A stretch of DNA of 64,000 bases from Dehalococcoidia bacterium (GTDB lineage Bacteria; Chloroflexota; Dehalococcoidia; Lucifugimonadales; UBA1123), in NCBI GenBank assembly GCA_034428835.1, contig DAOUHG010000028.1, forward strand, positions 19,742-83,741, given 5' to 3'. The position numbers and the translations under genes are program-made. Shown in pieces: positions 39,557 to 57,090 of the stretch; the first letter of the stretch is position 1, and each line of letters opens with the position of its first letter. Below the pieces are notes generated by a model, which worked only from the letters and a program-made list of their open reading frames with translations, made no database searches and was not told the origin of the DNA.

Positions 39557-39701
39557 GGTAAGCGCCTCCCGTCTATGTTGCGGCAATGTTAGCAGACTAA
39601 GGCGCACGACGAGCGGGTATTACGGCACCCCGCACGTACCTAATAGAGATGTGGAAATCCGGGGCCCACTTTGCCGAGGAATGTTCATTCTGGCAAATCC
39701 C

Positions 39702-41379
39702 TCACGCCAGCGTGTAGAGCCGGTTCAGAGGAACCTCGCTCATTGGACTTGAGGTGACAACGGTTCCATCCACGCTTATCCGCTTGCTTTCGAGATTTAC
39801 CTCTATCCTGGGGTTGAAGCTGTTTCTTACCATGCTCCGCTTGGTTACCGTTCGCACGTCCTTCACGGGCAGGAGCTTGCGTCGTGTGCCCAATCGCCTC
39901 TGGAGACGCGATTCCAGTGAGGCCTGAGACACGAAGAAGGCGCTGGACGTGGCTGCGGAGTTTCCCAGGGCGCCGAACGCGGGCCCGTACGTCACAGGCT
40001 CGCACTGTCTGATGGAGGCGTTTCCCTGGCCGGAGGGAGACCACGCCACCAGGCCGCCCTTGATGACCATATCTGGCTTGACGCCGAAGAATGCGGGACT
40101 CCAGAGCACCACGTCGGCCATCTTGCCCGGCTCCAGCGATCCCACGTAGGACGATAAGCCGTGGGTTAGGGCGGGATTCAACGTGTACTTGGCGAGGTAA
40201 GCGCAGGATACGATCGTTGTCGTGCTCAGGGTGAGTCGCTCCTCGCTCCCCCTTCATCTTGTGCGCCAGTTGCCATGTGCGAGTGATAACCTCTCCTATC
40301 CGTCCCATTCCCTGTGAGTCAGAGTTGATGATAGGGACCGCGCCCATGTCGTGGAGCACGTCCTCGGCGGCCATGGTCTCGCGCCGCAGCCTTTCGTCGA
40401 GAGCGGCGGCCTCGGGCGGAGCGGCCACGTTTACATTGTGCACCTGCGCCGTCATGTGAAAGTGCTCTTCGTATGTGCTGACCGTGTATGGAATCGTAGG
40501 CGTGGTGGAGGAGGTGATGATGTTGTTCACTCCCGCCAGTCTGATGAGGTCGGGCGCGTGACCACCGCCCGCGCCTTCGACGTGATAGGCGTGGACTGCG
40601 CGTCCACCTATCGCTTCGATGGTGTCGGACACCTGCATGGACTCGTGAAGGCCGTCGGTATGAAGGGCAACCGACACGTCGTACTCGTCTGCCACACGTA
40701 GACATGCGTCTATGACGTAGGGATACGCGCCCTCGTCCTCGTGGATTTTGAAGCCCGCGGCTCCCGCCTCAATGCTCTCCACCATTGGAGAGGGATGGCT
40801 CGCGTTGCCCCTCGCCTGGAGCGCGAGGTTGACCGGGATATTCTCGAACGACCGCAGCCAGCCTTGTATCGTGGAGCGCCCAGTGGTGTTCAGACCCGCG
40901 CCGACGAGCGTTGTCAGGCCCGCGCTCAGGGCCACGTCCATGAGCTTGGGGTTGTTGCCGATGTGCACGTGGCTGTCCACGCCGCCGGGCGTGGCGATAA
41001 GGCCGTCCCCGCGATAGACGACGGTGTTCGGGCCGATAACGAGGTCAACATCGTCCATTATGTCGGGATTGCCCGCCCTTCCTACCCCAACGATGGTCCC
41101 GTCTTTTATGCCGATGCTTCCTTTGAATATCCCCATCACTGGGTCCACGACGATTGCGTTCGAGATAACGTTATCCAGTTCGCTGTCTCTCGCGGGGCGA
41201 TACGAATACATCATCCCCGTCCTGAGATTCTTGCCCCATCCTCCCAGTATCTCGTTGCCGTAATCCGTGTAGTCTCTCTCTATCAGCGCGAACAGGTCCG
41301 TATCTCCGAACCGCACGCGGTCTCCGGCGGTGGGACCGTACATGGACCCGTACTTCTGTCTATCGATTTCGAATGGCAC
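39702..41379 (-). pseudogene. ureC: urease alpha subunit, reading frame broken by one extra base near 40200
   Basis: The N-terminal 393 codons (41379 down to about 40201) keep the canonical motifs GGVDSHVH, GFKIHED, HTDGLHE, HAYHVEGAGGGHAPD and NSDSQGMGR. After ...DNDRILR the true continuation [42 protein letters not shown] is in the +1 frame (track ORF 39702..40181). Confidence 0.8.
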
Positions 41380-42324: not shown

Positions 42325-42400
42325 TGGTACCCCTGCCCGGACTCGAACCGGGGCACCCGGTTTAGGAAACCGGTGCTCTATCCTCCTGAGCTACAGGGGC
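42325..42400 (-). tRNA. tRNA-Arg (anticodon CCT), CCA encoded
   Basis: Hand fold: GCCCCTG TA GCTC AGGAGGATA GAGC A CCGGT TT-CCT-AA ACCGG GTGC CCCGG TTCGAGT CCGGG CAGGGGT A CCA. Confidence 0.85.
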
Positions 42401-42630
42401 ACGTGGACTGTGAGCGTTCAGGGCCGTGAGTACGACCACACGAAAATTCTGACAGGGGCCGGCGCTCCGTGTCAACACACGAGCTTGGTTCGAGCCTGTC
42501 CCATATTAGTAGGCGCCACCAGTCCAGACCTTGTCCTAAGGCCGCAAGGGTTGCCCTGCGCCTACTAAATTGACGCAGGGCCTGACCTTGAGGAGTAGCG
42601 ACGGTCCGCGAACCTCCTCATAGGGCCGCC

Positions 42631-42873
42631 TTCCGGGGACTTCGAGGACCTTCGAGACCTTTTTCGGTCGTCTGAAAAAAGAGTTAGCCACCAATGGCGG
42701 CGCTCAGAGGGCGACTTCCGGGGACTTCGAGGACTTTCGAGACCTTTTTCGGTCGCCTGAAAAAAGAGTTAGCCACCAACGGCGGCGCTCAGGGGTCGGC
42801 TTCCGGGGACTTCGGGGACCTTCGAGACCTTTTTCGGCCTGCGAAAAATAATTCAGCCGCGAATCGCGTTCAG
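42631..42873 (+). repeat. 85-bp tandem repeat array, left (forward) arm, about 3 copies
   Basis: The unit ttccggggacttcgaggaccttcgagacctttttcggtcg(t/c)ctgaaaaaagagttagccaccaa(t/c)ggcggcgctcag... starts at 42631, 42716 and 42801. Copies 1 and 2 differ at 6 of 85 positions by my alignment. Copy 3 is diverged, and a partial copy precedes 42631. Confidence 0.9.
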
Positions 42874-42900
42874 TAGGGACAACTCGCTGAGCGTCCCTAC
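42873..42900. repeat. hairpin gtagggac-N12-gtccctac
   Basis: Perfect 8-bp inverted repeat read directly, immediately after the left repeat array. Confidence 0.6.
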
Positions 42901-43128
42901 TATCGGCGCAATTGCCTGGACCAGGACTTCAATCCATACCAGTCTGGTGTGAGGCCGTCATGTTTTCGCTGGCTGGAACCTGTATCAACTTGGTCGCTGA
43001 CCACGTCATTACGGGGAAAGTCGGAATACAGAGGGGGACTGGGGATGAAAACAACGGTGTTATCGAGGTCTTCAGGGCAATTGCATTCTCCCAACATGAA
43101 GTCGCAGAGCAATCTCAAACCCGTTCGC

Positions 43129-43147
43129 CCCCGGATCAAGTCCGGGG
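43129..43147. repeat. hairpin ccccgga-tcaag-tccgggg
   Basis: Perfect 7-bp stem with a 5-nt loop inside the non-coding mosaic. Confidence 0.5.
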
Positions 43148-43240
43148 CAGGCTCTGAGCTTGTCGAAGGGCCGTTCATGGGTCGACAGACTCACCACGAA
43201 CGGACTTATACCAATTCGCTTTGACTACGCCACAAACCTA

Positions 43241-43384
43241 CCATGACACACAGGGTCTTTCGATTATCTTTCTAGCCTGTTCCCATATTGTCATGCTGAG
43301 CTTGCCGAAGCATCTGGTCAGCAGACCCTTCGCTCCTCTCAGGGTGACAGATTGGGGATAACCGAAAGACCCTGCCATGACACA
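43241..43384. mobile_element. MITE-like element: 124-bp imperfect palindrome with 12-bp TIRs and 10-bp flanking direct repeats
   Basis: Direct repeat ccatgacaca at 43241-43250 and 43375-43384. TIR cagggtctttcg (43251-43262) and cgaaagaccctg (43363-43374). The interior holds two opposed REP-type units (gtcatgctgagcttgccgaagcatc and gacccttcgctcctctcagggtgac). Confidence 0.5.
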
Positions 43385-43407
43385 TTCTCATGCGTAGATC
43401 CCCGTCC

Positions 43408-43434
43408 GTCATTCCCGCGAAAGCGGGAATCCAT
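43408..43434. repeat. REP-like hairpin, copy 2 (gtcATTCCCGC-gaaa-GCGGGAATccat)
   Basis: 8-bp stem (43411-43418 with 43423-43430) and a GAAA tetraloop. Confidence 0.65.
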
Positions 43435-43584
43435 CGACCCGGGTGAGGGAGAATACGGTGTAATCATCCATAATTGGTATTATTAGAGAATGCGATTGCC
43501 CTGCCGATGTCTTCGACTAAACTGGTACAGCTTCCGCTGGCTGCCCCCAATGGATTTCCGCCCCGTATCGGAGTATCGGGTAAC

Positions 43585-43737
43585 GTCCTCTAGCGGCTAA
43601 ACTTTTTTTGAGGCGACCGAAAAAGGTCTCCGAAGTCCTCGAAGGTCCCCGGAAGTTGCCTTCTGAGCGCCGCCATTGGTGGCTAACGTTTTTTTGAGGC
43701 GACCGAAAAAGGTCTCGAAGTCCTCGAAGTCCCGGCG
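43585..43737 (-). repeat. 85-86-bp tandem repeat array, right (inverted) arm, about 2 copies
   Basis: The reverse complement reads ...gccgggacttcgaggacttcgagacctttttcggtcgcctcaaaaaaacgttagccaccaatggcggcgctcagaaggcaac ttccggggaccttcgaggacttcggagacctttttcggtcgcctcaaaaaaagtttagcc..., the same unit as 42631-42873 on the other strand. Confidence 0.9.
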
Positions 43738-43822
43738 AAACGACTCTGTATAGGCTGTTCTCGAACCGCAAACCTGTCCCAGGTTGGTAGGTGAGCTCTG
43801 CGATGGCTGCCTCACTACCCCT

Positions 43823-43871
43823 GGATTCCGGCCCCGTATCGGAGTACGGGACAGGCTCTTCGCCGGAATGA
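43823..43871. repeat. composite REP-like hairpin, copy 3 (outer ATTCCGGC/GCCGGAAT stem enclosing cccgta-tcggag-tacggg)
   Basis: Outer stem 43825-43832 with 43862-43869. Inner hairpin 43833-43850. It lies 21 nt downstream of the recO stop. A related unit (ggatttccgccccgtatcggagtatcggg) is at 43551-43580. Confidence 0.6.
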
Positions 43872-43891
43872 TGGAGCGGGCATCGCTTGGT

Positions 43892-44662
43892 TCAGACCGA
43901 CCCCGCCCGTCGCGTGAACTCGGCGCTACGAATGTCGCGCTCGACGATCGAGCGGATGTACCGTGAGGTGATGCGCTCCACTTCGTTACGCAGATTGTCG
44001 CCGAGCGTAGGTTCGCCGATTCCATCGACTGCCACATTGCGTTGGAAGTGCCTGAGAACGCGCATGGCAGACTCTGACACCGGAACCTTGTGCCCGATAC
44101 CCAGTGCCCGGCAATCGGGACACAGCACTCCACCGGCCGCAAGGTCGAGAACGTGGTCTCCCGGCTCCACGGCTGCATCGCACTCCACGCAGTTTTCCAG
44201 CTGTGGACGGAACCCGGTTACGTCGAGTACGCGTAGCTCGTACCATCTGCCCACAAGCCAGGGGTCGGTGGTGTCTTCAAGCGCTTCCAGCGTCTCAGTA
44301 ACCAGCGCGAAAAGCGAACGACTCGGATATCTCTCCTGTGAGAACAGGTCTGCGACCTCACAGACATAGATCGAGTGAGACAGACGGGCCAGGTCTTCCC
44401 GAGCGGCCGGGTGGTCGTCGCGCAGCGCCGCCTCAGTGATGACGTCGAGATTTCGCCCGTATGCTGCGGCGAAGTCCACAACGTTGGTGAGGTCCAGGTG
44501 GCCTCGCAGACGCCCGTTGGGGCGGCGAACGCCTTTGGCAACCGCCCTTACTTTCCCCAAGTCTGGAGTGAGAATCGAAACGATGCGGTCCGCTTCCCCT
44601 AGAGGGTACTGTCGCAGGACCACTCCGCTTGTCCTGTACGTCCGCGACCTCACTCGACTCAT
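43892..44662 (-). CDS. recO: DNA repair protein RecO
   Basis: Start set at ATG 44662, 4 nt after the recR stop. YRTSGVVLRQYPLGEADRIVSILTPDLGKVRAVAKGVRR OB-fold N-terminus and Cys4 zinc motif CVECD...CPDC. Confidence 0.85.
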   Translation of the reverse strand: MSRVRSRTYRTSGVVLRQYPLGEADRIVSILTPDLGKVRAVAKGVRRPNGRLRGHLDLTNVVDFAAAYGRNLDVITEAALRDDHPAAREDLARLSHSIYVCEVADLFSQERYPSRSLFALVTETLEALEDTTDPWLVGRWYELRVLDVTGFRPQLENCVECDAAVEPGDHVLDLAAGGVLCPDCRALGIGHKVPVSESAMRVLRHFQRNVAVDGIGEPTLGDNLRNEVERITSRYIRSIVERDIRSAEFTRRAGSV

Positions 44663-57057: not shown

Positions 57058-57090
57058 CCCGCATTGAGCCCGCATTGAGCCCGCATTGAG
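57058..57090. repeat. 11-bp tandem repeat x3 (ccc-gcattgag) in the ino1/uvrA divergent spacer
   Basis: gcattgagccc at 57061-57071 and 57072-57082, and gcattgag at 57083-57090, read directly. Confidence 0.85.

Follow-up and report, generated by a model that had tools for sequence, protein, structure and literature searches.

What are the two oppositely oriented arrays of an 85–86-nt tandem repeat that lie 0.7 kb apart in the genome of a Dehalococcoidia bacterium, and how did they come to be there? The arrays are found on contig DAOUHG010000028.1 (assembly GCA_034428835.1), in a stretch of 64,000 nt that was analysed as a whole and is called the window here; coordinates without another label are positions in it. 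A preliminary description of the window had proposed that the pair might extrude as a cruciform, mediate inversion of the enclosed segment, or represent the ends of a large non-autonomous element. Our analysis places the arrays inside an inserted block of 1393 nt, 42492–43884, located between the recO stop codon and the promoter of tRNA-Arg(CCT). We interpret this block, with a probability of about 0.68, as a non-autonomous or fossil transposable element of the foldback type, which carries no genes, has minisatellites as its arms, and would have depended on a putative transposase acting in trans. Such an architecture is unusual for bacteria.

The inserted nature of the block is revealed by the corresponding sites of sister lineages. 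In L021 and L022–L027, in which RecO is 81–84% identical, the recO stop codon is followed after 14–16 nt by a TTGACA..CAGAAT promoter and then by tRNA-Arg, with no arrays in between. When 42492–43884 is removed from the window and one copy of GCTTGGTTC is kept, the remaining sequence aligns colinearly with the empty sites of L021 and L022; thus, relative to the sister lineages, the block is an insertion. It is bordered by a perfect, GC-rich 9-bp direct repeat, GCTTGGTTC, which is the sole exact repeat of at least 9 nt common to the two 40-nt junction zones (when 40-nt windows at a distance of 1.4 kb are paired at random, an estimated 0.65% of the pairs have a 9-mer in common). No carrier has lost either copy, and a single mismatch occurs in L008, the syntenic locus of the metagenome-assembled genome (MAG) CBDCEF01. 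An element inserting between the recO stop and the tRNA-Arg(CCT) promoter would have generated this repeat by duplicating 9 bp of its target. The features at the insertion site are as follows.

42325–42400, minus strand: tRNA-Arg(CCT), a flanking host gene.
42446–42475, minus strand: promoter-like site of tRNA-Arg (TTGACA, 18 nt, CAGAAT), outside the insertion and directly after recO in the empty sites.
42483–42491, no strand assigned: target-site duplication, copy 1, just upstream of the tRNA-Arg promoter.
43885–43893, no strand assigned: target-site duplication, copy 2, overlapping the recO stop codon (43892–43894).
43892–44662, minus strand: recO, a flanking host gene, in the 256-residue form called in relatives.

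Some other candidates at this site were rejected. The motif TGGGACAGG, found outside both arrays, was considered as the target duplication and belongs instead to the inverted terminal segments. Integration of an element at the tRNA does not fit the position of the insertion, which is upstream of the tRNA promoter and not in the tRNA 3′ end, and no integrase is present; as for iterons, a replication origin, or a centromere-like site, rep and par genes are absent from the vicinity and the flanking genes are all co-directional.

Within the insertion, the parts of the element are arranged as follows.

42492–42623, plus strand: left unique terminal segment, starting GAGCCTGTCCCATATTAG, with hairpin arms at 42495–42516 and 42558–42579 and inverted homology to the other end.
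42624–42878, plus strand: left array of three 85-nt units, the innermost degenerate (64% identity); 2–5 units on this arm in relatives.
42879–43568, no strand assigned: variable non-coding centre containing a long imperfect palindrome (43064–43515); the stretch beside the right array also occurs at a second locus.
43576–43745 (approximate extent), minus strand: right array of two units of 85–86 nt, the innermost degenerate in its 3′ part; 1–4 units on this arm in relatives.
43746–43884, minus strand: right unique terminal segment, altered in the window lineage by a 52-nt hairpin element (43821–43873) resembling repetitive extragenic palindromes (REP-like).

The arrays themselves are real and far beyond chance, as judged from repeat calls and from a 21-nt core, CTTCGAGACCTTTTTCGGTCG. 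With up to three mismatches allowed, this core has five matches in the window (three on the plus strand and two on the minus strand), all within the arrays, and 0 matches in 100 dinucleotide-preserving shuffles of the window. The left array had been described as having a period of 85, with first and second copies that differ at 6 of 85 positions and a diverged third copy; Tandem Repeats Finder agrees (42617–42837, period 85, 2.6 copies, 91% matches, score 370), and a repeat search yields in-register 85-nt copies that begin at 42624, 42709, and 42794 and are 100%, 93%, and 64% identical to the first. On the right, the two reverse-complemented copies and their 86-nt spacing (at 43595 and 43681) stand as described, with the correction that the array reaches about 43745. 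Between the two arrays, the repeat search also returned inverted-repeat pairs of 55–89 nt with 77–92% complementarity.

Each unit contains the sub-features that had been listed for it: three direct sub-repeats of 9–10 bp, GGAC(C)TTCGA; a small palindrome, GACC-N6-GGTC (GACC-TTTTTC-GGTC), placed between a T5 run and an A6–7 run; and a 15-bp GC-rich near-palindrome, GCCACCAATGGCGGC. Units of one arm are 93–94% identical to each other; the value is 89% both for units of different arms and for units of different loci, and arm-specific variants are kept. One unit follows directly on the next, period and unit length are the same, and there are no cas genes in the flanks, in line with the earlier view that the arrays are not CRISPR-like. 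That the unit fits no known repeat family also holds: Rfam at its gathering score reports only the two tRNAs, a permissive Rfam search gives chance-level matches only, and BLAST searches of plasmids and phages with the whole region return no match.

The inverted symmetry extends beyond the arrays. From left to right, the locus consists of the duplication, a left repeat of 387 nt (132 nt of unique sequence and three units), the centre, a right repeat of 316 nt (two units and ~136 nt of unique sequence), and the duplication again. Read inward from the duplication, the two ends can be aligned throughout, beginning at the first base and continuing across a unique segment of ~130 nt, which starts GAGCCTGTCCC, into the units; the arrays are therefore the inner part of terminal inverted repeats of 320–390 nt. 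The ends share a terminal motif, GA(G/T)(C/G)CTGTCCCA..ATT.G.AGGCG, followed by the internal motifs CCTAC.AA..TG..CAGG and G.GAAC..CCT.ATA.AG.G.CG and then by the first unit. For the terminal parts of L008, global alignment gives a z score of 4.6, with 0 of 2000 shuffles reaching the score and a value of −30 for the wrong-orientation control. In L008, both ends directly adjoin the 9-bp repeat, and the recO-side end reads GATGCTGTCCCAGATTGG. What had been taken as an inverted repeat of ~1.1 kb thus has genuine opposed arrays and a longer symmetry, which runs out to 42492 and 43884. Likewise, the suggestion that the arrays are ends of a large non-autonomous element is right in placing them within the terminal inverted repeats of an insertion and needs amendment in two respects, as the element is small (1.39 kb) and its true ends lie ~130 nt outside the arrays.

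Changes to the terminal segments were seen as well. The 52-nt REP-like hairpin element (CTGGATTCCGGCCCCGTATCGGAGTACGGGACAGGCTCTTCGCCGGAATGATGG) is present at 43821–43873, as a partial copy at 43546–43580, and in L009 at 1724–1773, which are unrelated places; it gives the recO-side terminus extra sequence in the window lineage, and L008 is without it there. At the second locus, ~113 nt of the hairpin-rich left terminal sequence (corresponding to 42504–42617) are missing, and the array follows the terminal motif without a gap (CCCATAT|AGGGCC), a junction compatible with deletion through microhomology.

Comparison with relatives reveals that both the number of units and the centre vary. Exact look-up of the window RecR yielded four long syntenic loci. 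Over 2.8 kb of compared sequence, L003 (GCA_047516565.1) and the window do not differ, and L002 and L001 retain the window centre, in the same orientation, with 99.5% and 96.5% identity. The numbers of units, with the recO side given before the tRNA side, are as follows.

Window and L003: 2 and 3.
L002: 2 and 4.
L001: 4 and 3.
L004: 4 and 5.
L008: 1 and 2.

These changes proceed in steps of 85–86 nt at both loci and would be explained by replication slippage or unequal recombination. Tandem units in the 40–100-bp range with a strain-polymorphic number are the mark of a variable-number tandem repeat (VNTR) minisatellite, a likeness that concerns behaviour only, as the units have no sequence relation to mycobacterial interspersed repetitive units (MIRU). 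The centre is variable as well and takes up other mobile DNA. In its place, L004 has a 3.1-kb transposon of the IS1595 family (L004 11885–14987), which has its own inverted repeats of 27–34 bp and three passenger open reading frames (ORFs) and which truncates the inner tRNA-side unit; these properties identify it as a secondary insertion. It has no target duplication, which suggests that an adjacent deletion removed the original centre. One of its passengers encodes a 211-residue collagen-repeat protein with an apparent lipoprotein-type signal sequence at its start.

No other species searched has the unit. An exact scan for the unit core in one genome per GTDB species returned a single genome, that of the MAG CBDCEF01, in which the core occurs at L008 and at the second locus. 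JGI metagenome contigs contain 16-nt chance matches only, viral contigs contain none, and an nhmmer profile of the unit found no diverged copy at the loci of sister lineages.

The second locus lies between genes for an AAA_15 ATPase and an acyl-CoA ligase, with an HNH gene beyond the ATPase in most carriers. There, 1–2 units are followed by ~65 nt of inner sequence common with the window, an ORF for an IS1595-type transposase, and 2–4 opposed units. Arm polarity and the terminal motif are as in the window, and the unit number again varies between strains (L007/L009, L016–L020). In CBDCEF01, a circularly permuted contig carries this locus divided between its ends (L007, L009); the continuity of the locus was confirmed by a short-read contig (L016) and the long-read loci L017–L019, and L020 covers the left part only. 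L029 is without the element at the corresponding site, with junctions that are not clean.

[quoted passage not shown] Its long inverted tandem-repeat arms around a variable middle are the mark of a foldback element. A putative transposase supplied in trans would have moved it, and the three 9–10-bp sub-repeats in a unit may serve this enzyme as a series of binding sites. As the element is found at the same two loci in every carrier seen, it is probably immobile now.

Several observations weigh against this assignment. Identity between the unique terminal parts is only 56%, with 70 of 124 aligned positions matching. At the second locus, no clean target duplication is definable, and the empty site is not colinear base for base. 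The GAGCCTGTCCC terminal motif was seen beyond the two loci neither among the loci compared (loci, not whole genomes) nor in viral contigs, and the same holds for an autonomous partner with such termini. Each genome has only two loci, and both are fixed in all carriers; no presence/absence polymorphism was seen in the clade, and hence nothing that points to recent movement. A MITE would be expected to be well under 1 kb and present in many copies, with an identifiable autonomous partner, and 1.39 kb exceeds the typical MITE size. Finally, the binding-site role of the units is conjectural.

The transposase at the second locus raises an alternative, in which an IS1595-type transposon uses the arrays as its ends, with an autonomous copy at the second locus and an internally deleted derivative of it in the window. 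The ORF (L017 6001–6843; also in L007/L009, L016, and L018–L020) always lies exactly between the two arrays and has no inverted repeats of its own. It is intact from an internal ATG and ~99% conserved in six assemblies. The inner sequence of the window is common with the second locus up to GGGGGCAGCCAGCG, which aligns with codons 1–5 of the canonical gene. Counting L004, relatives of the window carry two different transposase genes of this family between their arrays, and the 9-bp duplication is within the 7–9 bp reported for part of the IS1595 family (PMC12561309). However, the closest relatives of the second-locus transposase (80–83% identical; L013–L015) belong to ordinary insertion sequences (ISs), which lack arrays and have a canonical start, the 5′ leader, 25-bp inverted repeats (GGGAATTATATAC...), and AT-rich duplications of 8 bp. 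The second-locus gene has GGG in place of the canonical ATG and other sequence in place of the conserved 5′ leader, and both inverted repeats are absent.

The element in L004 is a different one, with a transposase 38% identical to that of the second locus and, as described above, its own termini. A DDE transposase with an N-terminal zinc ribbon, as expected inside an IS1595 member, was found only at the second locus and in the separate L004 transposon, and tblastn of both IS1595-type proteins against the window detected no transposase remnant. Canonical IS1595 relatives have inverted repeats of 25–34 bp, which are unrelated to the units or to GAGCCTGTCCC, and 8-bp duplications, whereas the window element has GAGCCTGTCCC termini and a GC-rich duplication of 9 bp; because termini and duplication length differ, the window element is not a member of the IS1595 family. 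We consider it unlikely that the arrays are the ends of an IS1595-type element. A more specific form of the idea, in which the 85-nt units are multimerised binding modules for the second-locus transposase, which lacks conventional inverted repeats, and the window copy is its deletion derivative, is similarly doubtful.

A second alternative takes the units to be functional cis-elements. They would act as two-way terminators or insulators, or offer a DNA-binding protein a series of sites, and would have been retained for keeping interior transcription away from recO and tRNA-Arg, or the reverse. In both arms, each full unit has the near-palindrome (GCCGCCATTGGTGGC), then TAAC and a T-run, on the strand leading outward from the centre, an arrangement that is terminator-like. 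On the opposite strand, the sub-repeats form a hairpin, after which come ACC and T5, and hairpins with T-runs on both strands would account for the T5/A6 pair. The folding results are not in keeping with such a role. Structure prediction per unit and covariance analysis across copies, both proposed in the preliminary description, were negative: single units fold no better than shuffled sequences on either strand (z from +0.25 to −1.3), and RNAalifold on 19 distinct full units gives, for both strands, 9–10 pairs at about −10.7 kcal/mol with no compensatory change. Moreover, sister lineages do without the arrays, with recO and the tRNA promoter 14–16 nt apart, and the unit number varies freely. 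There is no evidence of an effect on recO or tRNA-Arg, nor of any benefit to the cell, and we give this alternative a small chance.

The structure could also have arisen in place, by inverted duplication of one minisatellite array followed by slippage and with no transposition, the second locus then being a segmental copy. The restriction to two loci per genome, the lack of a clean duplication at the second locus, and the greater likeness of units within an arm (93–94%) than between arms (89%) would agree with such an origin. It is nevertheless decidedly improbable, as the inverted homology reaches the ends of the block, where it adjoins a 9-bp direct repeat without mismatch, in a target that is otherwise intact, and as polarity and terminal motif are repeated at an unrelated locus.

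The centre had been proposed to invert. As an invertible switch, it would be flipped by recombination between the arrays, and inverted repeats of 180–255 nt with 83–92% identity do flank it. Its orientation relative to the flanks is, however, identical in five of the five carrier assemblies in which it is preserved (the window, L003 as its identical copy, L001, L002, and L008), a comparison of consensus assemblies that a rare inversion would escape. The genes called in the 10 kb to each side include no recombinase. No ORF is recognisable in the centre, which faces no gene that could be switched on or off, and the block does not include the tRNA promoter. The arms match perfectly over at most 26 nt and keep their own variants. 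A switch of this kind is very improbable. Pfam scans of the ORFs in the centre and arrays gave no match, and indels in the centre between relatives are not multiples of three.

An assembly artefact, including the chimeric assembly named in the preliminary description as a possible source of the arrays, is excluded for practical purposes, as no point in its favour was found and the same architecture recurs in independent long-read and short-read assemblies from several samples, among them contigs of 2.6 and 3.9 Mb.

As for the proposed cruciform, arms that lie about 0.7 kb apart are unlikely to extrude in duplex DNA; fold-back of single-stranded DNA is possible. The centre contains an imperfect palindrome of its own, ~450 nt long (43060–43515), with nested arms at 43073–43090/43486–43503, 43208–43231/43457–43480, and 43251–43268/43357–43374. 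It folds on both strands (z = −8.3 and −7.3) and therefore fits better as nested palindromic mobile DNA than as a strand-specific RNA. A hairpin within it, GTCATTCCCGCGAAAGCGGGAATCC (ATTCCC-N8-GGGAAT; 43407–43437), occurs again at L007 4929–4958 and is probably another small dispersed repeat; it has a weak, sub-threshold Rfam match to the Francisella small RNA FtrB (20 bits, E = 2.7).

The arrays sit in a 1.5-kb stretch with only short, unsupported ORFs. The GC content across the region is 52–56%, compared with 60–65% in the flanks. Beyond the tRNA on one side lies ureABC, and recO is followed on the other by recR, ybaB, and dnaX. The recO ORF comprises 279 residues in the window and is called with a different start codon in relatives. 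Compared with the 97%-identical gene of L001, ureC (39685–41379) has a 1-nt indel near 40199, so that its true C-terminal 165 residues are in another frame (tblastn matches in frames −2 and −3) and the ORF of 564 residues, as called, ends in an out-of-frame, Arg-rich tail; the indel marks either a pseudogene or a homopolymer assembly error. Downstream of ureC, L001 (16079–17827) and L004 (18767–20515) have a GmrSD-like gene (PF03235/PF07510), placed between ureC and an amine oxidase gene in L001. This gene is missing from L002 and L003, and hence from the window lineage, and is a strain-variable defence gene near the locus. Elsewhere in the window, Tandem Repeats Finder reports three perfect tandem copies of the 11-nt unit CCCGCATTGAG at 57058–57090.

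With respect to known systems, the element is reminiscent of the foldback (FB) elements of Drosophila and other eukaryotes, which have long inverted arms of tandem repeats, a variable arm length, a variable or dispensable middle, a target duplication, and many copies without a transposase. The present element has such arms, of varying length, around a variable middle, together with a target duplication and no transposase. Unlike FB elements, it is bacterial, occurs at two loci per genome, has ~130 nt of unique sequence outside its arrays, and differs in unit size, with no known sequence relationship; the resemblance is one of architecture and not of family membership. MIRU-VNTR loci of mycobacteria and the BOX elements of Streptococcus pneumoniae (boxA, variable boxB, boxC) are likewise intergenic, with tandem units of 40–100 bp at several loci and strain-polymorphic numbers. 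They share with the present arrays the intergenic position, the multiple loci, and the polymorphism between strains, but their arrays run in one direction, whereas inverted arms and a target duplication are found here, and there is no sequence similarity. Non-autonomous elements of bacteria normally have short inverted repeats, and arms composed of variable tandem arrays, a hallmark of eukaryotic foldback elements, have to our knowledge rarely if ever been described in bacteria.

While the eukaryotic FB elements are closest in architecture, the closest bacterial counterpart is BrickBuilt of Porphyromonas gingivalis, a MITE in which a 23-nt minisatellite in one orientation lies between a “leader” and a “tail” and which has 19 copies per genome (PMC4596501). 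Like the present element, BrickBuilt is bacterial, intergenic, species-restricted, and gene-less; it has small inverted-repeat ends together with an internal tandem repeat of variable copy number (PMC4596501). The present element differs in having two opposed 85-nt arrays within its inverted repeats, a 0.7-kb centre, and two loci.

For annotators, the locus carries a warning that ORFs called across the arrays are spurious. For the uncultured Dehalococcoidia clade in which it is found, it is a ready VNTR marker of strains, and it shows how structures of this kind gather further insertions. Should the units turn out to be reiterated modules for transposase binding, the element would offer a simple system for studying the part that subterminal repeats play in end recognition, and if the second-locus transposase uses them, it would represent a new class of bacterial foldback element, in which ends are recognized through reiterated subterminal modules.

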